In this document: piece by piece, positions 1 to 33,780 of the stretch
How the letters are laid out: each line of letters opens with the position of its first letter
How positions within the stretch are numbered: the first letter of the stretch is position 1
IMG/VR virus record: IMGVR_UViG_3300028844_005363
Span: 10,758 to 74,757 of that record
DNA length: 64,000 nucleotides
DNA from: a virus
Direction: 5' to 3' (one strand)
Program-made: the position numbers and the translations under genes
The notes under the pieces: generated by a model
What the model saw: the letters and a program-made list of their open reading frames with translations, nothing else
What the model was told of the DNA's origin: nothing
Databases searched by the model: none

Positions 1-3000
1 CTAAATTAGCTACCGGTTTTATAGCCTGAGCTGGTTTGCTCTTTAGAATGGCTGTCAGTGGCGCTACTGCCCATAATGCAGTTGCTTTAACCTTTGCATC
101 CAATGCTGTGGTAGCTCTATCGTAAGTAGCTGCAATAGTACCTTTCTTGGTATTATCCACACTTGCTAACGCATGAGCCATCTGCATCATAGCTTCACTG
201 CCATTCAGATTTTTAGTACCAGTAATGCGTTGCCCTAGTTGATCAGCTAGTCTTTCCACAATTTTCAAGAATGTAGAAGTAATGTCACCTGCCCAGATAT
301 TTTTCCATAAGCTATTTGCAGGTGCTACGGTCATATCCACTTTATCTAAGGCATTCATGAATGCACGGTTAGTTGTACCAAATACCAAAAATTCATGTAG
401 GTATGAGTTTCTACCAACACTGTCATTATTAGTATTGTTATAAATATAATCATAACGTAACTGTGCCGCTGCTAATTCAGTAGGGTAACTTAATGACTGT
501 TCGGTAATTACCACACCATCTCTGTCAACCATTTGGTTAGCAGAATTAATGTTTATGAAGTCTTTAGCTGTAATCTCCTTACGACTAATTTCCCACATCT
601 TTTCTAACTGACGCGAAACCAAACTATTAGCATTAATACCTATCTGTGTAACGTGATGCAGTAATTCATGTAAGTAAGTTTCTTGTGCACTCATTTGAGT
701 ACCGTTGGCTAACATACCACGTCCAATGTTTAAGAATACTTTATCGTTTTGGATAGCACCTACAGTAGTGTTACCACCTGAACGAACATGCAGCTTAATC
801 GGGTCCATTACTTTATTAACTAACGTACCAAGTAATTTCTCTAAATGCTTAGTGTGAGTAATAGGGTCACTTACATTACCTACTTTACCTAGCACATTGA
901 ATATCTGTTCAGAGTTCATGGCATCTACTTCGCGAGTACTTGAAGCCACAAAGTTCTCTATATCAATACTAGATACACCGTCAGAAAATAATGTACCTTG
1001 GTTTTCATCTACAGGTCGTCTTAAAACAACAGTTGTTACATCCGTGTCTGTAGAGAACAAATCAACTACCGTATACTCACTAGTCGCATTAACAGCATCG
1101 GTGATGTACTCGTAGTTAACTTCTTTTAGAAAGTTTTCCCCAATCGTTACATTAGTGTCGTTGGCTATAGCACCATCAGGCATAGATATTTGCACATCAA
1201 CTGGTACTACTTGCAAGTCATCCAATACTAAAGCTAACTGGTTCGCTCGCTCTGCTTCATACACTTCTAAGTTATTAAAGTTAATCTCAAACTCATTGCG
1301 TAATGTCCCAAGAAGTCTACGCCCTTTTCTAGTGTCCAAAGACTCAACAGCCTTATCTACTTCGTCCAAAAACTCTTTAGCAGTTTCTTTAGAGTAAATA
1401 CTTTTAGCAGTACGTTTAGGTGCGCGCTCTCCCGGTTTAGGTATGTTGAACGTTTCAAGAAATTCAGCTTCCACTTCTTGAAAACCTAATTCAGTTAACG
1501 AAGGTAAGTTAGTTTTATATGCACCACCTTCCCCTTTATTGTACTGCTGTACTACTGCAATTTTGTTTTTAATAACTGCGCGGTACTGCTGCGTTTCTTG
1601 CTGCATTACTTTAAGAGCAACTGACATATTAGGCAGTTCTTCAAAATCTGCAGGGAACATAGAAGCATACGCGTCAAGTACTCTTGAATGCATCTCTGCT
1701 ATGTTGTCTACGATACTAAAATCACTCATGGCAACATCAGTCATAGCCTTATTAAAAGTCTCAGTGCCTTTTTCTACATCATTAAGTGAGAATATTAAGG
1801 CATCATGTACGTTAACCGCAGCGTACTCAGCCATGGTTAAATACATAGTAGCAGCATCCATACCATGTACTTGACCAACTACAGCATTAGGACCAGCATC
1901 TTCAAATGTTTGGTTATAAGACATAGAGTTTAATGAACCAACTGGCTTAGTAGGTTTATTTGTTTGGTGCGTACCTGTGTGACCACGTTCATTGTATGAA
2001 TGAGGTTTGCTGTACTTATACTCGATACGAGATGTAGCATCCTTGGTTACAATGTTTTCTTTGCCTACAGGCATGAAACCATCTTCAACACTTTCAGAAA
2101 AATAGTTAGCCATTATAGGCATTACATTTTTAAGGTCGCGCTCTATTTCTAAATAATCTTCTTGGCTCAAGTCTACAAAGTTAGGGTCTAGTGCTTTACG
2201 TTCAGCCTTCTCTGACTCTATGCGCGCATGGTACATTTTCTTAAACATAGTGGTTGCTTCGCTAACGGCATTCACCAACAATTTACGCGACTCTACGAAT
2301 GTACCAAACTTCTCATCCATTGCTGTTTCTAGCGGTGCGCCAAAGTAGTCGCTTACCGTATCTACAAAATTAGCAACGTCTACTTCATCAGTTAAGCCAA
2401 CTTTCTTATCTAATTTAACTCGTTTACCTACAACGGTGTTTACTGCATTACGAAGTTCTTCAACACGTGCACGTGCCTTTGCACCTTCTGCTTTGGCTTC
2501 TGCTCGTTTGTCGAAGTTTTTAAGTGCTAGTACGCCTTTGTTAGAAGCTATGAACTTATCAGTTACTTCTATAGTAGCTAGGTTCTTAGCAATCTCTTCA
2601 TGCAGCTTATCCAGTACAGTCATAGAGAAGTTGGCTATAATTTTCTTAATAGCAGCACCGTAGTTAGAAGTCATTAGTGGGTCTTTAGCCAATTGACGAC
2701 CTAACTTAGTTACTACATCTAAAGCAGAAGAAGACTCTTTATCTTCTATAAACGAACCTACTATAGTTTCTAAAGCATTAAGCTTGTTAAGATTTACCTT
2801 GTTCTTTTTAAGGCGTTGCACAGCGCGCTGCTCACCTTTTGTAAGGTTATCGTAACCAACACCTGTAGTGATCACCTTTTTTAATTCTTTAAACGCATTA
2901 GTCCAGCCTAGTGAAATATCTTCATAGCTATCATAGTTGCCTGGTTGTTCACGCCATTTAGCATATGTCATATCTGGATCAGTAAACATACCAGTACGTG

Positions 3001-6000
3001 CAAGCATGGTTTCAAGTTGTGACCATGTAGATGCACCTACTATTTGAAGTAAGCTCAGTGCTACACCATTCGTTAAACCATCAACCTCACGACCGATGTC
3101 AGTAACAAACGATGTCTCGCCATTAGCATAGGCACGTTTCTGTGAAGCCAATGCAGATATACCATCTAGGCTAAACATGTTGTTACCACCTGCTTGGATA
3201 CCAGCAAGTAAGGCTGCTTGGTTCTCAGGAGTATGCCCCCAATCTTCAATAGCGATATATGCATCAACAGCTTCTTGTATTACTGGCTTATCAATAGTGC
3301 TTCTCGCAGATGCAACACCAGCAGCAATTGATTCTTTATCTGGTGATGTGCCTAATGCTTCACCTACGGCGATATAGAAGTTATCCATCAGTTGTAGGTC
3401 TGACTTACCAATCTTCACTGTGAATGACTCAGGCGCTATTACATGCCTATGGTTCTTATCTGTTTGAATATTGATAGTGTTTGATGCAATACCCATTCGG
3501 AAGTTTTTCCATACCACATGCATGAAGTAGAACGGTGATGTTTTATCCGCACTACCATCCCAGAAATCACGCATATGCTGTAAGCCACGAATCTTAGCTT
3601 CGTTGTTACGTAGTATAGAATTATGGTTTAGTGCATGCTCACCTGATAGGTCATGTTGTACCCCGCCGATCACTTCTTGAGCTTCTTCATCAAGTGACAG
3701 CAATACACCCATTAAACCAGTCTTCCAAGTATGCTTAGTGTGTGACGATTTCTCAGCAATCTTTTTAATTTTGCTTGGGATATTCTGATCACTAGCTAAA
3801 AGCTTCTCCTGCACAAACTCAGGAGGAGTATCATGTGGTGCTGTTACAGTTGACTCAACATCAAATAGTTTCTCCATTAGCTTACGTCCTGATGTCATAT
3901 CAGTAGTAAAGCGAGTTAGTGAAGCTGCCGGTGTAAATTTATTTACACTAGACTCAGCAACGTTAATAAACTTAGTGTTTTCAACTGAACCAGTTACAGT
4001 AGGTAAGCCTTGCACAAAGTTTAGTGTGTTGTTATTTACCTGAGTAATTTTTACTAAGCCTTGAGCTTCAAGCACATCAATAATTTGGAAACCAATTGAT
4101 ATTTCCATTTTACCTTTTAGAATAGCTTCGGTAGTTTTAGGTGCATTGATACCTAACGAGCGTAAATAAGTTTTACCTAGTTGTTCAGCTACAGTACGTA
4201 AGTTGTTACCTACATCAGCAAGCAAGTCTTCTTCTAAACGACTTACTATGTCATCTTGTTTCTTGTCTTTAAGTAGCGCATTAATAGCTGCATCATCATT
4301 AACGAAACCATCAAACGCTTTATCACCTAAGTAGTTGTAGGCAACGATAGCCATACCAGCAACAATATTACCGTCAGTATTATGACCAGTAATTGTATTA
4401 AACAATTCCTGTGATGGATTTCTGCCTGTGTATCGTGGGTCTGCTTTATTGAATGTAGCTTCAAAGTTCTCACGGAAGTCTTGTGTAAATTCCTGAATAT
4501 CAAGCAGCTTAGTACGCTCTTCTTCATTAAGGTCTTTAGCTACAGCCATATCGCTAATATCTAAATCAAAGAAGTTCTTTTCATTGGCTAAAACACTTTC
4601 AGTTTTACGTACTTTAAACTTACTCTTTAGGAATGCATTCTCTTCCAAAGCACGTTTAATTGTATAAGTAGGGCGCTCCAAAAAGTTCTTAGCTACGCGT
4701 AAACCAAAACGCTTAAACGGTGTATTGGCTCGCGCTTCGCTTTGCCCATTAGCGTAAACTTTAAGACCTGCTGTTACATCACGTAATGCTTGCTCACGGT
4801 TCTCAAAAGGTACTTTCTCAACAAACTTTTTAATAGAGTCTAAAATCTTATCTACTCGTTGTTTGCCGTCAGCTTTTTTAACCTTATTCAATCCAGTAGA
4901 CAGTGTTTTACGTAGGTTAGCTGTGTTCACATACTGACCAACATACTCACGAACAGTATCCAAGGCATCACGTTTGCCTATAGTTTCGTTCTGAATAGCA
5001 TCTACTTTTGCGTAAAGCTCTTTAGATAATTCTGTATCACCTATTTTTTCAGCGAATGCAGCTTGTTCAATAAGAGTAAATAATTCAGGGTTAGCTGATT
5101 TAGATGCACGGTTCTTAAGGTCTATGCTAGCAACGCGTCTAAGCGATTTTAAGGCACGTAATTGTTGTGCTGCCGTAAGTGCTTCACCACTATCTAATAT
5201 GCCTTGTACAGTCTTAGCTGCTTTGCTCTTAGGGAACTGTGAAACCAACTCATTAGTCTCAGTAGTCTGTATTGCTTGAGTTGCTTCATAAGCATCTTTT
5301 GCTTTTGTTGAGCCAGATTCTAAATCAGTCAATACATTAAGTGCTGTAGCTAATGAACCATAACGCTTAACTAACTCACGGTTAGCTAATTCAGTTTGTT
5401 TAAATGCATTCTTACTTTCAGATGCAAAGCGTACTGATGTATCAAAAGCTTCCTTTAATTCAAGGTCAGGCATTACAGCGAAGTCAGTAGCAATATTACT
5501 TGGTACGTCAGCGGCAGTAATCTCAGGTGTTGAGTCATTGTTGATAGTGATACCAGCTTCGGCTACAGCAGCTTCCCATTCAGCAGTAACCGCAGCATCA
5601 CTTTCTGATATTGGCGTACTATCAATCGCAGCTTCTACAGATTTAGTTGTAGCTTCTGATGTTGTAACCACCGGCACTACTTCACCATTAGGTGTGATAG
5701 GTGCAGCTTCTGTTACTTTTGGTTTATTACCAAATTTTTTCTGCATCATTAATGACGCTTCTGATAGTGCATGTTTAAGTGCAAAAGCTTCTGCTTTCGT
5801 AGCAGCTACTAATTTACCAGTAGTATTATCAATAGTGATACCGGTCTTCTCAGCTATACGTGCAACTTCTGGGTCATTAGGATTTTTCTTATAAGCAGCA
5901 AAACCTTGTTTAAGTGCCAGGTACTTTGCCATGTGACCTTTAGCAAATGATGCAAAATTATTTATGGCAGATGTTGCACCGGCAGTGTCATTATTATCAG

Positions 6001-10669: not shown

Positions 10670-12865
10670 TTATAAACTTAAACCAGAAGTATTAACACTA
10701 GGTAATTCTAATTGCCCTTCGTAAAAATTCGTTAGTGCATCTAAAGCGTACACACCGGGATTAGGTGAACCTACTGTTCTACCGAAAAAATTATCAGGTG
10801 TTTCATTTGCTAAGAAACCAGTGTTACGTACTATCCAAGCTGGGTCTACCCCGACATCTAATAAGCCGTCACTCGCTTCTTCTAAAGCATCCATTGCTTC
10901 ATTGTATTCTGTTAAAAACTCTGCGTATTCTTCTTCGAGGTCTTTAAACTCTTCCTCTGTAAACTCATTAATATTTTGAGCCACTAAGGTTACGATTTTA
11001 AGCATATCCTCTGCATTAGGTAAGTAAGCAAAAGTCTCACCAGTAAATCCGTAATAAGCTGAAACTGCTGCTGCTATTATAGCTAGTACAAGTGCTACTT
11101 CCCCACCAAATTGGTTAGCTAGGAATGTAGTTACTACACCCACTGCTTCAGAAACAGCAGCACCTATAATAATGGCTTCAAGAATATAGGCAACTACTTC
11201 ACTAATACCTTGTTGAACAGCAACACCTATTTGAGGTGACATATATATAACAGACACAACAAAAACAATAACTTTAACTGCTGCCCAAAAGTCTTCTCGC
11301 TCATACCATTTAAGTTTTATCTGCTTAGATGATTGAGTAACTAGAACCATACTTGATAGCATTGCTGCTGTAGCTTTAGATTTTGACATACTACTAACTA
11401 CTGTATGGTTCATAGGTATAACAATGCCTGATAAAACATCTTCACTATCTAAAGGGAAAGCATTTCTAAGTGTATATATCGGTGTCTGAGTACTATCCAG
11501 ATAATTAGTAACCAGCTTATTAGCTAAGTTACCTACTCGCATTCTTCTGCCTGTTCGTGCTACAGCATCATAGTAATCAACATAGATATAACTAACTTCC
11601 CCTGTTTGTTCTTCTATCTCCCAAGTATCGTTGTAGCCTTGGTCATAGTTAATATACTTACCGAACTTATAACCAGACTCGCCATTAATATAAGGTATTG
11701 TTTGGCTATCCATGTAGCCCCATGAAAGCTGTACTTTGAAACTAGAAGGTATCTGCTCATAGAACCATAAGTAAGAGGTGTCACCTCTGTATATGTTTCC
11801 AGACTCTTCCCATTCAAGTTTGGTTTTAGGACCATAGTTTTCAATTATGTATTCCATAAACTTATACAAGTATTCTAAGAGTATTTCATCTAGCTCAAGT
11901 ATATCGGAAATAACTAAAGCAGGTGCGATATACGCTCTGTTTACTTCAGCAATATCAGGGTTAGACTCAAGATTTTCTTTTATAGTATCTAAGTCCATAC
12001 CGTAATATTCTAGTAAACGTTCTGTCTGTTTAAGACGTTCAGCGTTTTCCTCAGCATCTTCAGTAGACTCTTCACCTATCCATTCTGGACTTGATTCAAG
12101 AGAACCTAATCTTATTAAAGCCAGTGGGTAGTACTGGCTTTGGATACCACCTAATATAATTTCTGTTAGGTCAGGGTAAGTCCATTTCTGTGGGTCATAA
12201 GTAAAATAGAAATCTGAGGTAGCACCATAACTAAAACGTATACGCACCACTTTATTTAGTGTGCTACCTGGGTCTCTGAAGTCACTCCAAGTCTTATAAA
12301 TTTTGCCTGTTTCTAAAGTAGCTGCTTTATTATCTGGGTCAAACATATCGTAAGTAACAACCAAATCATATTCAGGTGGTGCTTGTGGGTCATCATCTGG
12401 GTTACTTCTTTCGTACTCAACATCTGTTACTTCTGCCGCATAACCAGTAGGCATATTAAACATGTTAATATAATAGCCACTACGTTTATCTACTTTACCG
12501 TTAAAAACATTAGCTATATTAGCCAGTTCATATATTGCCGTAATAACTTTATCATACTCATTAGTTACGTAAGTAATATCAGAAGACGAAGTACTTAGTT
12601 CACCAGCTAGCCAAGATTTTACTGCATCCCAATCTATAAGCTCATCTTCATTATTTGCTTGCCATATGCCACGGTAGTAGTCATTCAATCCATAGCTATA
12701 TGCTTTACGGAAATCTACGTTGTAACCACTGACAAGCCCGTCAAGAATAGTAGGTACTTTTTCCCAATCATTTATGACAGCACGCAAAATAGATGACCTA
12801 ATTATATTAGGACGTTCTGTGAATATTGGTGTAGCTGATGCACCTACTACCGTATAAGTTGCCAT
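10670..12865 (-). CDS. N4 gp53-like virion-associated protein
   Basis: 731 aa, hydrophobic C-terminal segments after KWYE motif; synteny between gp52 and gp54. Confidence 0.7.
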   Translation of the reverse strand: MATYTVVGASATPIFTERPNIIRSSILRAVINDWEKVPTILDGLVSGYNVDFRKAYSYGLNDYYRGIWQANNEDELIDWDAVKSWLAGELSTSSSDITYVTNEYDKVITAIYELANIANVFNGKVDKRSGYYINMFNMPTGYAAEVTDVEYERSNPDDDPQAPPEYDLVVTYDMFDPDNKAATLETGKIYKTWSDFRDPGSTLNKVVRIRFSYGATSDFYFTYDPQKWTYPDLTEIILGGIQSQYYPLALIRLGSLESSPEWIGEESTEDAEENAERLKQTERLLEYYGMDLDTIKENLESNPDIAEVNRAYIAPALVISDILELDEILLEYLYKFMEYIIENYGPKTKLEWEESGNIYRGDTSYLWFYEQIPSSFKVQLSWGYMDSQTIPYINGESGYKFGKYINYDQGYNDTWEIEEQTGEVSYIYVDYYDAVARTGRRMRVGNLANKLVTNYLDSTQTPIYTLRNAFPLDSEDVLSGIVIPMNHTVVSSMSKSKATAAMLSSMVLVTQSSKQIKLKWYEREDFWAAVKVIVFVVSVIYMSPQIGVAVQQGISEVVAYILEAIIIGAAVSEAVGVVTTFLANQFGGEVALVLAIIAAAVSAYYGFTGETFAYLPNAEDMLKIVTLVAQNINEFTEEEFKDLEEEYAEFLTEYNEAMDALEEASDGLLDVGVDPAWIVRNTGFLANETPDNFFGRTVGSPNPGVYALDALTNFYEGQLELPSVNTSGLSL

Positions 12866-27991: not shown

Positions 27992-29608
27992 TTACACAGC
28001 ATAACTATCGTAAGCACCAACCTCTGGTTCTTCCTCTTCTTCCCAAATTTGTGAATCTTCATTAAAAGAAAGAGGGGTTTCTTCACTAGGCATAAATGAG
28101 TTGATCAGCGGCAACATTGATATTGTATCCGCAAAGTCATCATGCTTAGATTTAAAGCCTTTACGTGATACTAGTTGCATTTCTTCCTGCATTTCTAGCA
28201 TCTCTGGTGACTTATTAAGTTCCTCAGGAAACAATATTTTATGGTTCTTGAATAACGGAACCACTACATTAAATCGCGTAATTTTATCAGTGCTAGGTCT
28301 AATGCCTGGATTACCTTCATTGTTCTCAGAAGTTAGATTAAAGTAACAACGCTTAGTACCCATCTCTCTTCTAACCCAAGAAACAAAACCTTTCTGTTGT
28401 CCGCTTATTTCAATACCTACTTCTAGTGGTTTATAAATTTGAACCAGTCTAAATAAGTCATCGACAGTCACAGCCATATCTTGCTGCTTACAAACACCGT
28501 CTACCCAAAACCAAGTACCATCAGAACTTAATGCCCACACAGAAATAACACTGAAATCACTAGCTTCCTTTTCAGAAGTTGCAAAATCCGTAGTGATATA
28601 AAAGTTATAACCATCTTTATGTTTAAGTAATGTGTTTCGTGAATACCAGTTAATTTCGCTGTCTTTAATTAATCTATCTTCTTCTGACATAATTCGTAGC
28701 ATTAGCTCCTGATTGAATGAATCCACCTTACCCGCTTTGAAAGCTTTGGTGTACTGTTTAAGTACATAATCATAAGTAAATCTATCAGGCCATGAGCCTT
28801 TAAACTCACTACGCTTGCATGGAAATTTTTCACATACAGGGTAAACGTTTACGTACCATGCACCAGACTCAACCGCTTTGTACAATGGGTCACGGGCGTT
28901 AAAGGGTGTACCTGACCATATGATTTTAGACTTAGTAGGATGCAGAGCGTAATCCACAGCTTTATACACTGTGTCATCTACGCTCGCTATAACCGTTTCT
29001 GAGCGTGCATCTTCATCAGATATTAAATCGTCCAGCACAGCAAGCACAGGACGCTTACCCATCTCCTTGGCTCCACGTACGCCGGTCTTAGCACCATAAC
29101 CTTTTATAATAAAACGATTGCCGTCAGTGTTTCTAAATTCCCAACGTATATCAGTAAACTTAGCCACAGGCACATATTCTTGTAAAAATTCAGAGTTCTC
29201 CCAACGGAACTCCAAGTTTTTACGCATATTTTTTACACCATTCTCTATACTATCAGAAACATAGATAGCCAAAGGCACTCTACCAAAGCCAGGAATTGAA
29301 CCATAAACAGCAATGTATAAAAATAAGTACTCACCTAACAATGTTGTTTTCGCTATGCCACGGTGACATAGGTTGATTGTGTTTTGGCGCTTACCACTTA
29401 TTTGATCAAGCATACGTAAATGAACTACAGGTGTTTTATTCTCCTCACCCTCATGACCATTAACCATCTTAATGAATGTCACAAATTCAACGGCAAAAGT
29501 ACTTGGTACATAGCAATCATCTATTGAATAATTTACTTCATTAATCCAAGCTTCTACTGTCTTTTCTGTTGGTTCCTCTAAAGGCACTTCCTCATCAAAA
29601 TCATACAT
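27992..29608 (-). CDS. terL: Terminase large subunit (N4 gp68-like)
   Basis: CHRGIAKTT, VLDD, SGTPFN, TTDFATS, HDDFADTIS. Confidence 0.95.
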   Translation of the reverse strand: MYDFDEEVPLEEPTEKTVEAWINEVNYSIDDCYVPSTFAVEFVTFIKMVNGHEGEENKTPVVHLRMLDQISGKRQNTINLCHRGIAKTTLLGEYLFLYIAVYGSIPGFGRVPLAIYVSDSIENGVKNMRKNLEFRWENSEFLQEYVPVAKFTDIRWEFRNTDGNRFIIKGYGAKTGVRGAKEMGKRPVLAVLDDLISDEDARSETVIASVDDTVYKAVDYALHPTKSKIIWSGTPFNARDPLYKAVESGAWYVNVYPVCEKFPCKRSEFKGSWPDRFTYDYVLKQYTKAFKAGKVDSFNQELMLRIMSEEDRLIKDSEINWYSRNTLLKHKDGYNFYITTDFATSEKEASDFSVISVWALSSDGTWFWVDGVCKQQDMAVTVDDLFRLVQIYKPLEVGIEISGQQKGFVSWVRREMGTKRCYFNLTSENNEGNPGIRPSTDKITRFNVVVPLFKNHKILFPEELNKSPEMLEMQEEMQLVSRKGFKSKHDDFADTISMLPLINSFMPSEETPLSFNEDSQIWEEEEEPEVGAYDSYAV

Positions 29609-30302
29609 CTTCTATGTCCTGTATTGGTTTATGGAATAGAGAAGACTGAGCCACCTCATGAGCGTTGTTGTTACCTTGCTTGATACTATTCACCTGTTTC
29701 TCAGCAAACTCGTTCATAGCTGTGCGTAGAGCGTCTATTGCACTATCTTCTTTGTGCGTTATTTCTAATTCCATTTTAGACACTTCAGGCTGTTTAAGAT
29801 GGGTCATAAGACTGTTTGCAGCATCCGATCGGACTTTAGGACTTACATCAAGATTGGTAGCTATACTGTGCTGTACGTTAATAGCATCCTGAAATTTATC
29901 CGAGTTAAGTATGTACGATGGAATTAGAGTTTGTTCTCTAATTTTATTAACCAAAATACTTTTGTTATATGCAGCTACATGGCTACTAATATCTTTATCA
30001 GTTACGCCATTATCTAAATGTGTTTGGTAGCGATCAGGAAAAGTTTTTATGTAAGCAGATTTATTAGTATCACCGCGCACCTTGAAACCCATGTAACGAA
30101 CAGCATCAATATAGCTATCCATTTTAAAGCGACCATCGTTAAGTACACTAGTAAAACCCAATAAATTATCGCGATAAACTTCGCGCTCATAAGGGTCATC
30201 AAATAGTGAATTAACGGTATCAACTAAACTTTGTGTTGCTCGTTCTTTTATATGTTTAGGCAGGACAGCCTTGAATGTATCTAGTGTTAAACCATTACTC
30301 AT
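29601..30302 (-). CDS. Terminase small subunit candidate (N4 gp69-like)
   Basis: AYIKTFPDRY, VSPKVRSDAANSLMTHLKQP; overlaps terL start. Confidence 0.8.
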   Translation of the reverse strand: MSNGLTLDTFKAVLPKHIKERATQSLVDTVNSLFDDPYEREVYRDNLLGFTSVLNDGRFKMDSYIDAVRYMGFKVRGDTNKSAYIKTFPDRYQTHLDNGVTDKDISSHVAAYNKSILVNKIREQTLIPSYILNSDKFQDAINVQHSIATNLDVSPKVRSDAANSLMTHLKQPEVSKMELEITHKEDSAIDALRTAMNEFAEKQVNSIKQGNNNAHEVAQSSLFHKPIQDIEDV

Positions 30303-30358
30303 TGTGAATGCTCGAAGTTAAATAATGATTTAGTATATAGGTGCTTGGTAGGTATAAG

Positions 30359-30410
30359 CAAACAATGTTACAAACCTCTCGTCTGCGACTTCGGTTTGTA
30401 GCATTGTTTG
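30359..30410. repeat. Long inverted repeat
   Basis: CAAACAATGTTACAAACC / GGTTTGTAGCATTGTTTG with apical GTC-TGC-GAC. Confidence 0.8.
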
Positions 30411-30428
30411 TTTGAGGGTTTTTCTATT

Positions 30429-31676
30429 TTACAAAGTACCCCACAACCAAGTGCCGTCACTTTGCCCTATTTGTATCTCACCTTCTTTTGGTACGTTTCC
30501 TTGTGCATCAATAGATAAAGGTGTCATTGCATAAGGTAAAGATACAGGTAAACCTTCATTTACTTGTACTTGTGTTTTGTAAACCAAAGGCGTTACTAAG
30601 TACTCTATAACAGGTACTTTGCCACTAGCGTCCCAATCATCACCAGTATTTGAAAATGAGTAACCCATCTTAGTTGCACCTAATGGAACGGTTACAGATC
30701 TAAAAGCCCCATCAGCGCCGTCATGATACGAAGCAAAACCAGAAGAGATAAAATTGTTATCGTCATCAGCAAAGTAATAACTTGAGTTATCCCCGCCAGT
30801 ATCTAACTTGATCACAAAATTTGGCTCAACATCAATTAGCGTTGTGGCTCGTCTATCAGCCTTGCTTGAGTCAAAGCGCAGTATAGGAGTTTCTGTAGTA
30901 CCGCCCTTATACCAGTTACCATTTTGTACTGTAAAAGGTAAAGAACCCGTAGGTAACAAAATAGGTTGATCTTCCATAGTCATAGTCATGGCTGCTTTTA
31001 AAGGCAACACTTGACTAAAAATGTAATTAACTAAACGACGCAAACCATTAAAATTTGGGTGCGTAAAGTCAAGGTAGAAGTCATCATTAAGGTGCACATC
31101 TGTAGTAGCATACTTACCACTGACGTATACAGAATCAGCAAACTCAGCAGGAAGCGTTTTATACATAGCATCCATTTCATCATTAATATCTGTACCAGTC
31201 TCATTAGGTGATACAAAGATTATTAGTGTGTCTGGCTTTGCTGTTAAGTATGTCGTAAGTCCTGCAATAATATCAGCCTTAACTTCTGCAACTGTTCTAC
31301 TAGATTTATTAATACCTAAAGACATTTCAAGAATAGTTGTACTTCCTGTGCCTGGGGTATTATCTATAGCTTCTTGTACTGTAGAGTTACCAGTATTACT
31401 TGCCCACCATAAAGCTGTTTGTCCGCCGCTAGCATTGTTATATGGTTCAAAGTTTATCTTCGCTAATTGTGGTTCGTAGTAGATAGTTGAATCTAGCTCA
31501 CCACTACTACGAGTACTATCTCCTGTAACGATGTAAGTGTACTTTTCATCGGCAGCTAAAGCTTCAGTAAAGCGTTGTTTGATTGGCGTGTTATCTTGCG
31601 CAATAAGCGCATTGATATTCTCTTTAATAAGTTCGGTAGTGTAGTTCACACCACAAACCATATTTACTAGATACAT
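30429..31676 (-). CDS. SGNH/GDSL esterase protein, paralog of the 25211-27238 C-terminal region
   Basis: GDST, YYEPQLAKINF, TPGTGSTTILEMSLGIN, LDFTHPN shared with the tail fibre. Confidence 0.85.
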   Translation of the reverse strand: MYLVNMVCGVNYTTELIKENINALIAQDNTPIKQRFTEALAADEKYTYIVTGDSTRSSGELDSTIYYEPQLAKINFEPYNNASGGQTALWWASNTGNSTVQEAIDNTPGTGSTTILEMSLGINKSSRTVAEVKADIIAGLTTYLTAKPDTLIIFVSPNETGTDINDEMDAMYKTLPAEFADSVYVSGKYATTDVHLNDDFYLDFTHPNFNGLRRLVNYIFSQVLPLKAAMTMTMEDQPILLPTGSLPFTVQNGNWYKGGTTETPILRFDSSKADRRATTLIDVEPNFVIKLDTGGDNSSYYFADDDNNFISSGFASYHDGADGAFRSVTVPLGATKMGYSFSNTGDDWDASGKVPVIEYLVTPLVYKTQVQVNEGLPVSLPYAMTPLSIDAQGNVPKEGEIQIGQSDGTWLWGTL

Positions 31677-31832
31677 AGTATTAAGTCCTCGTTGCACTGT
31701 ATTAATTTATCACTACAGCTAACTAGTTTTGTGACAGAATCGTACCACTTAAATTCTGTAGTTTTATTTACAATTAGTGATGCCAGTAAGTTTACCTTAA
31801 TGGGTTTACTAATTAAATTACGAGAAATCATA

Positions 31833-32093
31833 TTAACCGCCGTAGCTTTGCACTATTAGATTGGTAACATTAGTAGCAACTAACACAGGGAAGTTGCCTT
31901 GCCCATGCACTAAAGATAACGTACTAGGTACTGTTATAGCACCTTCGGGAATATCAACATATTGACCGTTAGAGTCTGAGAAAGCTAACTTTGCAGAACC
32001 CGCACCCAAGTCGCCAGAGAATACGAATACTGTAGTGGTTTGATTGTGGTTCGCTACTACAGTGTTAGTAGTACCGGTGATTACTTTTTTCAT
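31833..32093 (-). CDS. Small beta-rich hypothetical protein
   Basis: 86-aa ORF with AGGA RBS. Confidence 0.65.
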   Translation of the reverse strand: MKKVITGTTNTVVANHNQTTTVFVFSGDLGAGSAKLAFSDSNGQYVDIPEGAITVPSTLSLVHGQGNFPVLVATNVTNLIVQSYGG

Positions 32094-32155
32094 TGTCTAT
32101 CCTAATGGTTAAAAACAGGACTGATATTAACAGACCTGTTTTTAACAAGGTAGAA

Positions 32156-32644
32156 CTACTTAACCAGTACCCAATCCTCTGCTAGTAAATCTGACTGTGA
32201 CGCGACCCAAGGTACAACATCACCATCCACAGATTTTATTGCTATGTAGGCACGATAAGAAACATATGGTCCAAACGCAGCTTTAGCCACTTCTGTTTGT
32301 GCAGGGTAAATATTTTCAGGTACGTAGTACAGAAACATACCTTTACCATTCCAGCCCTTACGAGCAACCTTGTGACCTTCTTTAAGCAACACAATAGCAT
32401 CACCCATAGAAACGCCATACTCAACACCACGATACGCATTATGGAACACTTCACTAGGCGACCATGAGATATAACCTTTATGGTTTGGGTGATTACTTTC
32501 ACCGCCATCAACATACTCAACTAAGTAACCTGCATCATCAGTCTCATCTTCTGGCATAACCCAACCACGATAATCATTATATTGTTGGCGAGTCATTGCA
32601 GTACATAGTACTTGTTTGGTTCCAATACACAGCTCATTATTCAT
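32156..32644 (-). CDS. Two-domain protein with C-terminal DUF2829 (Tad2-like sponge) domain
   Basis: MGDAIVLLKEGHKVARKGWNGKGMF...VPWVASQSDLLAEDW; N-domain IGTK...GYLVEY...SWSP..VF..AY. Confidence 0.85.
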   Translation of the reverse strand: MNNELCIGTKQVLCTAMTRQQYNDYRGWVMPEDETDDAGYLVEYVDGGESNHPNHKGYISWSPSEVFHNAYRGVEYGVSMGDAIVLLKEGHKVARKGWNGKGMFLYYVPENIYPAQTEVAKAAFGPYVSYRAYIAIKSVDGDVVPWVASQSDLLAEDWVLVK

Positions 32645-32648
32645 GTGA

Positions 32649-33188
32649 CTATTCCCCTTCTTCTATTTTTTTAATGCGAGTAGTTAGAATACTTTCGTAG
32701 TCTTTCATTATGTCAAACTGGTTACTTAAATCATTTTGTGATTCTAAAGTTAAACCCTTGAACATAGGTGTATAAAAGAAATCACCTAATGCTTTAACTT
32801 TCACAGACAACTCAGCTAGTTCAATACGCATGCGCTCAATAAAAGTAGTCTCAACTTTTGGGGCTGCTAAAGTCTTAGCTAGGTGGTAGCCTTCAAGCTC
32901 CCATAACTTTTCGCGTGATTCTTTTACGCACTTTTCAGTACAGTATTTAACACCAAGCTCAGCATTGAAATTACGTTTATCTACACAAGCCATCTCAGAA
33001 ACAGCTAATGTGAAGTCAACAGCTCCCATTGGTAACACGCCCACAACAAGAGTAGTAGTCGTACCTTCTACAAGTGATGGTTTATAAATCACTTGCTCCA
33101 TCAGCTCAGCTATATATTCAGGCAATACTTTAGGAAATATTGCACCATTGTCTTCAAAGTCTTTACACATATCTTTATCGTCAGTCAT
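32649..33188 (-). CDS. Two-domain protein: N4 gp49/Sf6 gp66-family domain plus helical C-terminal domain
   Basis: ACVDKRNFNAELG...KLWELEGY; C-domain FIERMRIELAEL..K..AL..F...M..Y..IL..RI. Confidence 0.8.
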   Translation of the reverse strand: MTDDKDMCKDFEDNGAIFPKVLPEYIAELMEQVIYKPSLVEGTTTTLVVGVLPMGAVDFTLAVSEMACVDKRNFNAELGVKYCTEKCVKESREKLWELEGYHLAKTLAAPKVETTFIERMRIELAELSVKVKALGDFFYTPMFKGLTLESQNDLSNQFDIMKDYESILTTRIKKIEEGE

Positions 33189-33553
33189 TACTTTCCCTCA
33201 ACATTAAAAATTCTACCATCTATAAATCTATGGGTTGATTCTGCTTCCCACATCTCTTTAACTTTATCAGCCTTACAACTACTATGACCGATATAAATTA
33301 CATACTGTCTAGGTCTTAATTGATCAACTAATATCAAACCTAACTTAGTAAGTTCACGCTTACGTTTAGCTAAAGTATTTTTGGTAATACCTAAACCAAG
33401 CATAATATAACTATCATTAAAGTCAGCACCATTACGTAGCCCCGACAAGTAACCATAAAGCCTATAAGCGCCATCACTTAAAGAACTATCAATAGCTAAA
33501 GACTTGTCCATCTTTACCCAATTCTCTTTAGGGAATATATGCCTAACTATCAC
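33188..33553 (-). CDS. Winged HTH protein, replication-initiator N-terminal-like
   Basis: LSDGAYRLYGYL...LGITKNTLAKRKRELTKLGLI. Confidence 0.7.
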   Translation of the reverse strand: MIVRHIFPKENWVKMDKSLAIDSSLSDGAYRLYGYLSGLRNGADFNDSYIMLGLGITKNTLAKRKRELTKLGLILVDQLRPRQYVIYIGHSSCKADKVKEMWEAESTHRFIDGRIFNVEGK

Positions 33554-33780
33554 AAAGTAACTCCTGCCTTGATAGCATGATGCCCAACCATGTAAACCAA
33601 TTCTACATAAGCTTCAACAAACGTAGTTTCTTCCTCACCATAAGGGTCTTCTCTACGAGGATAAGCAACACCAGTATCTGAAACTACATGCCCTACCTTT
33701 TCATAAACTTCTTTAGCGGGTGATTTAGATATGGCTGACAAGTAAGCTTCTTTAGCCTTAGCTTCTCTAGTTAAACACAT
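33550..33780 (-). CDS. Hypothetical protein
   Basis: ORF overlapping the next gene start. Confidence 0.55.
   Translation of the reverse strand: MCLTREAKAKEAYLSAISKSPAKEVYEKVGHVVSDTGVAYPRREDPYGEEETTFVEAYVELVYMVGHHAIKAGVTL

Follow-up and report, generated by a model that had tools for sequence, protein, structure and literature searches.

Two adjacent genes on the minus strand of the window, a 64,000-nucleotide stretch (positions 10,758 to 74,757) of the IMG/VR virus record IMGVR_UViG_3300028844_005363, very probably constitute an anti-signalling cassette of a 74.8-kb N4-like phage, with the layout of the gp48 and gp49 genes of phage N4, except that the Acb4 gene here is extended by a Sequestin domain. 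The gene pair is a known kind of anti-defence cassette together with one uncharacterised hub module, henceforth referred to as the N-module. Both open reading frames were found where the first-pass annotation had placed them, with the motifs that it quoted (IGTK, GYLVEY and YISWSP; FIERMRIELAEL). Its domain layout, an N-domain with DUF2829 in gene 1 and a gp49/gp66 domain with a helical domain in gene 2, was recovered, with Pfam scores far beyond chance for the three domains of known families. The features of the locus are listed below.

32649..33188, minus strand: gene 2, Acb4-Sequestin fusion, 179 aa (ORF with Pfam PF13876 and PF21825)
32871..33122, minus strand: Acb4 domain, gene 2 aa 23-106 (PF13876)
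32670..32846, minus strand: Sequestin domain, gene 2 aa 115-173 (PF21825)
32156..32644, minus strand: gene 1, N-module and Tad2 fusion, 162 aa, counterpart of phage N4 gp49 (ORF and homologues)
32414..32644, minus strand: unnamed N-module, gene 1 aa 1-77 (no Pfam or NCBIfam match; folds alone)
32162..32410, minus strand: Tad2 domain, gene 1 aa 79-161 (PF11195)
33188..33780, minus strand: two small upstream ORFs of 76 aa and 121 aa, in the orientation of gene 2 (ORFs)

Gene 2 is transcribed first and gene 1 second, with a gap of 4 nt between them. Packing is also tight upstream, where the second of the two small ORFs overlaps gene 2 by one base, its TAA sharing that base with the ATG of gene 2, and both small ORFs are probable operon partners of the gene pair. 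The 121-aa ORF gave only weak PHROG matches, to DnaD-like or replication-initiator winged-helix proteins (E 1.6e-5); in Alteromonas phage PT15-A5, HTH genes occupy the corresponding position ahead of the Acb4 gene. A promoter and terminator scan returned fewer promoter-like sites than were obtained with shuffled sequences. A megablast search of the phage collection with this region found no near relative, and PADLOC returned no defence-system match.

The closest known arrangement is that of phage N4, in which gp48 (Acb4) and gp49 (N-module and Tad2) are adjacent and represent the same two families in the same order. Gene 1 aligned with N4 gp49 over its full length, N-module included, at 42% identity (156 aligned positions, E 7e-40), and N4 gp49 has a PF11195 domain of its own, spanning aa 83-159. 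A published test of this N4 protein was not found. The two loci differ in that the Acb4 of gene 2 bears an extra C-terminal Sequestin domain, which N4 gp48 does not, and in their location. The N4 genes lie just before the virion RNA polymerase gene, in the primase-vRNAP hotspot, whereas the present pair occupies the opposite end of the late-gene block, adjoining the terminase genes where the leftward structural-gene block begins. Anti-defence genes would not normally be looked for in such a position, a point that speaks against reading the pair as a cassette.

The first domain of gene 2 was identified by Pfam as Phage_gp49_66 (PF13876; E 3.8e-12, 47 bits against a cut-off of 27) and is 46% identical to phage N4 gp48 over 65 aa (E 3e-12). 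N4 gp48 in turn matches PF13876 at E 8.8e-35 and is an Acb4 that has been tested against Panoptes. The first-pass annotation had tentatively equated the gp49/gp66 family with Acb4, in agreement with Chang et al., who placed SPO1 Acb4 in PF13876. Within this family, 3'3'-cGAMP was bound by eight of eight purified homologues, and the cGAMP contacts of SPO1 Acb4 (PDB 9E4W) are K36, F48, E49, Y57, N63, T70 and K81. Neither SPO1 Acb4 (9E4W) nor any other Acb4 chain was recovered at E<=1 when gene 2 was searched against the PDB with phmmer and with a 33-sequence profile, and the identification as Acb4 is therefore based on Pfam and N4 gp48.

The second domain of gene 2 was identified as crAss001_48 (PF21825; E 2e-14, 53.7 bits against a cut-off of 24.8). 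PF21825 is Sequestin, a 3'cADPR sponge that was discovered through fusion logic (Tal et al. 2025), and 10 of the 13 members tested inhibited type I Thoeris (Tal et al. 2025). Sequestins bind this ligand as antiparallel helical dimers. Residues R119, E123, Q157 and R171 of gene 2 have the spacing 4-34-14, identical to that of R7, E11, Q45 and R59, the 3'cADPR-contact residues of SequestinB; this comparison is a by-eye pattern match on the gene 2 translation, made without structural alignment. The helical domain was one of "two candidate new inhibitor domains" in the first-pass annotation, which also suggested that the partners might match recently described sponge families. The latter suggestion was correct for the helical domain, which is the known Sequestin, leaving the N-module of gene 1 as the only uncharacterised domain.

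Pfam lists 91 fusions of PF21825 with Acb4 and 60 with Tad2, and the 62 homologues of gene 2 include Acb4-Sequestin, Acb4 alone, Acb4-Tad2 and Acb4-RyR. The two-domain architecture of gene 2 is also that of the phage YH6 fusion (Tal et al. 2025) and of gp59 of the N4-like Pseudomonas phage Ab09 (bioRxiv 10.64898/2026.06.04.730250), although Ab09 gp59 has 147 aa against the 179 aa of gene 2 and occupies a different locus. As a tetramer, Ab09 gp59 binds 1'',3'-gcADPR tightly and 3',3'-cGAMP weakly, and also 2',3'-cAA (bioRxiv 10.64898/2026.06.04.730250). Acb4-Tad2, present among the gene 2 homologues, is likewise found in Pasteurella phage Pm86, and multi-sponge fusions of this type, Tad2-Sequestin among them, allow a single protein to block both Thoeris and CBASS (Tal et al. 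2025). In the present cassette, by contrast, the four domains are distributed over a gene pair and include one, the N-module, that is not among the recognised sponges.

The C-terminal domain of gene 1 was identified as Tad2-like (PF11195, DUF2829; E 4.1e-25, 88.5 bits against a cut-off of 25). By phmmer against the PDB, gene 1 matched ModTad2 (9eib/8v3e) at E 5.3e-29 with 55% identity, in line with the earlier assignment of DUF2829 to Tad2, and SPO1 Tad2 was matched as well. The AF2 model of gene 1 (pLDDT 95.2) superposed on 9eib_A with Z 11.7 and an rmsd of 2.7 Å over 86 residues at that same identity. The closest solved relative is thus MoTad2/ModTad2 from a Myroides odoratus prophage (PDB 9EIB, 8V3E), a tetrameric sponge for His-ADPR and cUMP/cCMP. 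Across the Tad2 family, homotetramers have pockets at their interfaces that take up gcADPR, His-ADPR, cyclic dinucleotides or cUMP. It is a single domain of 88-89 residues as crystallised, whereas gene 1 has the additional N-module, and at 55% identity the ligand specificity of MoTad2 cannot be transferred to gene 1. The combination of N-module and Tad2 was found in 119 of the best 120 among 751 gene 1 homologues (E<=1e-3); the remaining one of these 120 is N-module and Tad2 with an added Sequestin.

The same domain also matched solved AcrIIA7 proteins (phmmer E 6e-18 and 1e-16; model on 8kbi_A, Z 10.3), and some phage records annotate genes of the N-module and DUF2829 type as "anti-CRISPR protein". 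That the DUF2829 domain of gene 1 is an AcrIIA7-like anti-CRISPR and not a signal sponge is nonetheless highly improbable, as gene 1 is far nearer to ModTad2, is linked to an Acb4-Sequestin gene, and belongs to a family fused to other signal sponges.

From family membership, the gene 1 and gene 2 proteins would oligomerise and sequester nucleotide immune signals of the host, such that the effectors are never switched on. The Acb4 domain of gene 2 would bind CBASS cyclic dinucleotides, its Sequestin domain 3'cADPR, the type I Thoeris signal, and the Tad2 domain of gene 1 a Thoeris signal, a Pycsar signal or both. The ligand specificity of sponges varies widely inside families, and the ligands named for the two proteins are therefore guesses.

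The N-module is a real, autonomous domain of 77 aa, which folds alone (isolated fold pLDDT 93.4) and is represented by 1,183 cluster representatives at 50% identity (E<=1e-3). The AF2 monomer model contains three strands and two helices, and the N-terminal IGTK segment is unstructured in it yet invariant. The invariant residues are G8, K10, Y22, N23, W28, G39, V42, E43, Y44, N51, G57, W61 and P63. The module is acidic (pI 4.6; 12 D+E against 5 K+R) and 13% aromatic. No Pfam or NCBIfam model matched it even at E 10, nor did any PADLOC model, and the phmmer alignments of gene 1 in the PDB start at residue 73 or later. A Foldseek search of the PDB with the isolated module gave nothing at E<=1e-3, the best rows having E>1. 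With VIA-align against 48,161 chains, the best match was DUF1653 (3be3, Z 3.5), followed by Mfd RID, chromo and Tudor domains at Z 3.0-3.5, all of which are within the noise range stated for the tool. A BFVD fold search returned the module's own family and otherwise weak rows only, among them the RyR-domain protein of Yersinia phage TG1 at E 0.16. None of these searches placed the module itself with Tad1, Acb2, Lockin, TadIV-1, Acb4, Tad2 or Sequestin, a negative that leaves room for a distant relationship. A derivation of the N-module as a repeat of the gp49/66 domain was considered and rejected, the N-terminal halves being unrelated and matching different profile regions in PHROGs.

Profile comparison linked the N-module to RyR Tad. 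The module aligned with aa 1-86 of gp68 (RyR Tad) of Pectobacterium phage vB_PatP_CB1 by hhalign (95.9%, E 5.7e-9, 67 columns, 28% identity), and its HMM matched gp68 at E 1.7e-10. In the CB1 record, gp68 is annotated as similar to a TG1 protein. On this basis the N-module is a distant homologue of the RyR Tad N-terminal domain, and the two belong to one unnamed superfamily. The RyR Tad domain likewise forms the N-terminal part of a sponge encoded by an N4-like phage; its C-terminal partner is an RyR Repeat12-like domain as opposed to the Tad2 of gene 1, and the gp68 module is without the conserved DGGxxNHPxHxG loop and most of the subfamily-invariant polar residues of the N-module. The crystal structure of the RyR Tad N-terminal domain shows a domain-swapped dimer, in which strand beta-1 is exchanged and the sheet has five strands. 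The N-module is therefore not entirely without precedent. By analogy with this crystal, the N-module would most likely form a strand-swapped dimer as well. A two-copy homodimer prediction from a 68-row alignment scored 0.22 against a mark of 0.42 and was counted neither for nor against dimerisation.

Among the 150 best cluster representatives, the N-module is accompanied by Tad2 in 55, by Sequestin in 40, by Acb4 in 12 and by an Acb2/Tad1 hairpin in 4, with further Acb2/Tad1-like partners appearing at relaxed thresholds. The Sequestin table of Tal et al. contains at least 148 occurrences of the SWSP motif, the sampled rows being fusions of N-module and Sequestin, and their Lockin table contains 2 divergent occurrences. 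An Acb4 and/or Sequestin gene was present near the N-module gene in 18 of 80 IMG/VR loci, and the exact arrangement of Acb4-Sequestin adjoining N-module and Tad2 in three of the 80. Conservation of the module is high. The mean pairwise identity was 63% for the N-module versus 55% for the fused Tad2, and 50-70% identity was retained in genomes of Gammaproteobacteria, Betaproteobacteria, Bacteroidota and Clostridia (single-protein contig scan, 5 loci).

These observations raise the tentative proposal that the N-module is a widespread anti-defence family of its own, which as a strand-swapped dimer may capture an immune signal, or disable a conserved target, outside the range of the published sponge families. 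Such a role would explain its fusions to Tad2, Sequestin, Acb4, Acb2/Tad1-like and divergent Lockin/RyR Tad domains, as well as the identity kept across phages of several bacterial phyla. That the module inhibits by binding nucleotides, as the first-pass annotation proposed, is conjectural. In this form the module would be a further nucleotide sponge, a swapped dimer with interfacial pockets for a signal that its partners miss (for example a cyclic mononucleotide, a cyclic oligoadenylate or another ADPR derivative), and its fusions would be dual- or triple-specificity sponges.

A sponge function, a tentative possibility, is suggested by fusion to at least four sponge families, with divergent forms on Lockin and RyR Tad, the same logic by which Sequestin was found, and by the existence of triple fusions of N-module, Tad2 and Sequestin. 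Short, stand-alone forms are also known: a 79-aa protein, a 75-aa ORF in one locus (L056) and nearest Atlas clusters of 77-93 aa. A near-length search with the 78-aa module returned one protein, a count that does not imply that stand-alone forms are rare since the word index is unsuited to so short a query. The module is small and its relative dimeric, like all known sponges; its conservation, greater than that of Tad2 and spanning phyla, would fit a chemically invariant target; and several of its Arg, Tyr, Trp and Asn residues are invariant in a subfamily-specific manner. Against a sponge function, type I Thoeris activity was not apparent for the isolated RyR Tad N-domain (aa 1-86), the N-module is acidic overall whereas known sponge pockets are positively charged, and it shows no fold similarity to solved nucleotide binders. 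Tal et al. also tested 124 pocket-based candidates, and none of them contains the motif of the N-module.

In almost every case the module occurs as the N-terminal part of a fusion, which argues against any autonomous role and is in keeping with a purely structural one, in which a strand-swapped dimerisation domain braces the oligomers of the sponge that follows and has no target of its own. The homologous RyR Tad domain, which contributes to dimerisation in the crystal through its beta-1 swap and is inactive alone, is consistent with such a handle, as are the partner families, all of them even-numbered oligomers (dimer, tetramer, hexamer) that would suit a dimeric clamp. This explanation is nevertheless doubtful. 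Tad2, Acb4 and Sequestin oligomerise without the N-module, a clamp is not expected to exceed its ligand-binding partner in conservation, and short single-ORF forms would have nothing to clamp. In addition, the invariant polar and aromatic residues R19, Y22, N23, R26, W28, E43, D46 and N51 are missing in the RyR Tad N-domain, so the shared fold does not need them, and a clamp would not be expected to require polar residues of surface type that are invariant in the N-module but not present in RyR Tad.

It is rather unlikely that the N-module instead binds a host protein, such as an effector or the synthase of a signal or, through an acidic, aromatic-rich surface, a nucleic-acid-binding protein. 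Its acidity and aromatic content would suit this role, its best, weak fold likenesses are to protein-interaction modules of the chromo, Tudor and CarD/Mfd-RID type, and several Thoeris inhibitors (Tad3-Tad8) bind proteins directly. The structural matches are nonetheless those inside the tool's own noise range, and the cross-phylum identity of the module would be unusual for a binder of fast-evolving defence proteins. Taking the small-molecule site and the host-protein target together, an autonomous anti-defence activity of the N-module is slightly favoured, while a role of some other kind is improbable.

Phage sponges reveal the small-molecule alarm signals on which bacteria depend, and fusion partners have already uncovered Sequestin. 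Most of the present cassette is ordinary and adds to the known occurrences of Acb4-Sequestin and Tad2 among N4-like phages; the gene pair points to a second, terminase-side anti-defence locus. The N-module is the most connected unexplained node of the sponge fusion network found here, and its presence in the model phage N4 makes direct testing possible with existing tools. Should the N-module prove to bind a signal, it might lead to an immune messenger or pathway for which no viral antagonist is known; should it be no more than a clamp, it would show how phages assemble multi-specific sponges.

The window derives from one contig of 74,757 bp, and the phage is identified as N4-like (Schitoviridae type) by its virion RNA polymerase (vRNAP) gene, which encodes 3,689 aa. 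No near-identical phage record was found in the phage collection searched, and the closest annotated relatives of the studied genes are in marine Alteromonas, Pseudoalteromonas and Vibrio phages. The two genes studied, henceforth referred to as the cassette, lie in a region of four closely packed ORFs, all on the minus strand; two further ORFs stand between the cassette and the terminase genes.

33550-33780, minus strand: ORF of 76 aa (ORF call)
33188-33553, minus strand: ORF of 121 aa (ORF call), weak PHROG matches
32649-33188, minus strand: gene 2, 179 aa (ORF call)
32156-32644, minus strand: gene 1, 162 aa (ORF call)
31833-32093, minus strand: ORF of 86 aa, between cassette and terminase genes, no Pfam match
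30429-31697, minus strand: ORF of 422 aa, between cassette and terminase genes, no Pfam match

In the sequence, one base is common to the stop of the 121-aa ORF and the ATG of gene 2, and a gap of 4 nt separates gene 2 from gene 1. The 86-aa and 422-aa ORFs could be assigned to no known family using Pfam, or PHROG, which gave a weak match only. Beyond them lie a 233-aa ORF, located where phage Paxi has its small terminase, and then the large terminase. The 121-aa ORF is translationally coupled to gene 2 and may regulate the cassette. Its weak PHROG matches are to DnaD-like/replication-initiator winged-helix proteins (E 1.6e-5), and HTH genes are present at the equivalent position in Alteromonas phage PT15-A5.

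The first-pass annotation had described the gene pair as four domains, and this description proved accurate. Pfam identified Tad2-like PF11195 at aa 79-161 of gene 1 (E 4.1e-25), and Phage_gp49_66 PF13876 (aa 23-106, E 3.8e-12) and crAss001_48 PF21825 (aa 115-173, E 2e-14) in gene 2. Residues 1-77 of gene 1, referred to here as the N-module, gave no match in Pfam at E 10 and none in NCBIfam. The solved Myroides ModTad2 shares 55% identity with the Tad2 domain (E 5.3e-29), which also matches AcrIIA7 and SPO1 Tad2; when gene 1 was modelled with AF2 (pLDDT 95.2), the model superimposed on 9eib_A with a Z of 11.7 and an rmsd of 2.7 Å over 86 residues. MoTad2 sequesters His-ADPR and holds cUMP/cCMP in a second pocket, and the ligands of other Tad2 proteins are 3'cADPR, N7-cADPR or cyclic dinucleotides. 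Since Tad2 proteins differ in ligand, the sequence of the gene 1 domain does not reveal which one it binds.

The link between the gp49/gp66 family and Acb4, proposed in the first-pass annotation, was borne out by Chang et al., who placed SPO1 Acb4 in PF13876 and observed 3'3'-cGAMP binding by eight of eight purified Acb4 homologues. SPO1 Acb4 was not recovered from the PDB with gene 2 in sequence and profile searches; the Acb4 domain of gene 2 is 46% identical to gp48 of phage N4. PF21825 is Sequestin, discovered by Tal et al. as the most frequent fusion partner of Tad2 (60 cases) and Acb4 (91 cases); of 13 members tested, 10 inhibited type I Thoeris via 3'cADPR sequestration. Gene 2 residues R119, E123, Q157 and R171 are spaced as the SequestinB contact residues R7/E11/Q45/R59. 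The same Acb4-Sequestin architecture occurs in gp59 of Pseudomonas phage Ab09, also N4-like, which a June 2026 preprint described as a tetramer binding 1'',3'-gcADPR tightly, 3',3'-cGAMP weakly, and the Panoptes decoy 2',3'-cAA.

Three other gene 2 homologues of 224-273 aa (P0313, P0323, P0330) carry Acb4 fused to a RyR domain (PF02026). In light of a 2026 report of gcADPR sponging by a phage RyR Repeat12-like domain, these resemble dual sponges that combine Acb4 and RyR Tad. An Acb4-Sequestin homologue of 263 aa (P0296) has an additional N-terminal region of ~85 aa whose pattern, GYALV...DG...HWF...F..MY, loosely resembles the N-module; it was not matched by the N-module HMM.

In phage N4 (NC_008720), gp48 (123 aa) adjoins gp49 (160 aa). 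N4 gp48, which served as Acb4 in the Panoptes study, matches PF13876 (E 8.8e-35), gp49 contains PF11195 at aa 83-159, and gene 1 is 42% identical to gp49 over 156 aligned positions that include the N-module (E 7e-40). These matches identify the window pair as gp48-gp49 with the addition of a Sequestin domain. The genome position differs, as the N4 pair directly precedes the vRNAP gene whereas the cassette lies beside the terminase genes.

The stretch between the primase and vRNAP genes is a published anti-defence hotspot of N4-like phages; the presumed primase ORF-to-vRNAP stretch of this genome showed no match to the four domain HMMs. The leftward block has the cassette at its far end, adjoining the terminase genes, and sponge genes (encoding proteins that sequester bacterial immune nucleotides) occupy the equivalent position in two annotated N4-like phages.

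Stenotrophomonas phage Paxi (L084), 596-2525: Tad2 (108 aa) + Acb4-Sequestin (153 aa), immediately upstream of the small terminase
Alteromonas phage PT15-A5 (L083), 2385-4216: two HTH genes, then an Acb4 gene

In many further N4-like records, only a few kilobases separate a gene 2 match from one genome end. N4-like phages seem to carry, at the terminase end (window 27992-33780, minus strand), a second anti-defence locus separate from the primase-vRNAP hotspot.

The isolated N-module is predicted to adopt a confident fold (pLDDT 93.4) with three strands and two helices; the IGTK segment ahead of them is unstructured yet invariant. No significant resemblance was found in the PDB (Foldseek E>1; best VIA Z 3.5), nor did sequence and fold searches match the other sponge families considered. 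The family comprises 1,183 cluster representatives at E<=1e-3 (595 at 1e-10), at least 570 IMG/VR loci and 125 phage records with hosts including Escherichia, Vibrio, Klebsiella, Pseudomonas and Acinetobacter, and occurs at 50-70% identity in bacterial genomes from the Gammaproteobacteria, Betaproteobacteria, Bacteroidota and Clostridia. In P22-like coliphages, an N-module + Tad2 gene is flanked by the lysis cassette and the small terminase (Escherichia phage Kapi1, L001 2989-3510), and some related coliphage records label it 'anti-CRISPR protein'.

Almost all fusion partners of the N-module are sponges. Among the 150 best representatives these were Tad2 (55), Sequestin (40), Acb4 (12) and the Acb2/Tad1 hairpin domain (4), and several representatives with the N-module as sole HMM match were divergent Tad2, Acb4 or Acb2/Tad1-like fusions. 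N-module + Tad2 + Sequestin triple fusions occur as single polypeptides of 265 and 233 aa (L089 2423-3220; P0008), one of them in a Clostridia genome (Alkaliphilus MAG, L089). Some partners are not recognised sponges: the WDGH domain PF25311 (single case, P0248), DUF7307/Pam3 gp33-like (single case, P0186) and nine with no Pfam match (P0150, P0147, P0263, P0234, P0162, P0193, P0185, P0244, P0237). By the fusion logic that uncovered Sequestin, they are further anti-defence candidates.

In the supplementary tables of Tal et al., the SWSP motif of the N-module occurs at least 148 times in the Sequestin homologue list, where sampled rows were N-module + Sequestin fusions, and the Lockin list holds two divergent N-module forms. 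The motif is absent from their tested-candidate list, and the N-module is not discussed in their main text.

Across the best 80 IMG/VR loci, N-module + Tad2 was found in 65, N-module + Sequestin in 7, and a longer N-module protein in 7 (six are ~210 aa long, including one confirmed as Acb2/Tad1-like; the seventh has 154 aa and no Pfam match). An Acb4 and/or Sequestin gene lay near the N-module gene in 18 of the 80, and three contained the exact window cassette. One held a stand-alone 75-aa N-module ORF; other short forms are a 79-aa protein and the nearest Atlas clusters (77-93 aa). At its stop, the 75-aa ORF overlaps the start of another ORF, of 104 aa and without a Pfam match (L056 3004-3542); the two lie beside an SU10-type portal gene and may be a split form of a fusion with an unrecognised partner.

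Sequence comparison makes the N-terminal domain of gp68, the RyR Tad of Pectobacterium phage vB_PatP_CB1, a homologue of the N-module (hhalign 95.9%, E 5.7e-9, 28% identity, 67 columns; N-module HMM against gp68, E 1.7e-10), so the fold has already been seen, though unnamed and functionally unassigned. The RyR Tad aa 1-86 fragment crystallised as a domain-swapped dimer, with strand beta-1 entering the other protomer, and was apparently inactive against type I Thoeris. The RyR Tad domain lacks the N-module DGGxxNHPxHxG loop and the invariant R19, Y22, N23, R26, W28, E43, D46 and N51, which are thus dispensable for the shared fold.

The invariance of these polar and aromatic residues and the loop argues for an autonomous function, as do a sequence that stays the same regardless of fusion partner, conservation that spans phyla and exceeds that of the Tad2 partner (mean pairwise identity 63% vs 55%), and the occurrence of short single-ORF forms. 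Against it stand the negative result of the sole published test of a relative, on one defence system, the acidic net charge (pI 4.6) and the nearly constant fused, N-terminal placement. A further small-molecule sponge is, tentatively, the candidate given most weight, closely followed by a purely structural dimerisation handle; a protein binder is less likely than either, and some other role accounts for the small remainder.

The cassette itself is of a known kind, as the gene 2 architecture is published and gene 1 is of the N4 gp49 type. The new elements are the breadth documented for the N-module, a hub in the sponge fusion network, and its link, suggested by profile comparison, to the RyR Tad N-terminal domain.
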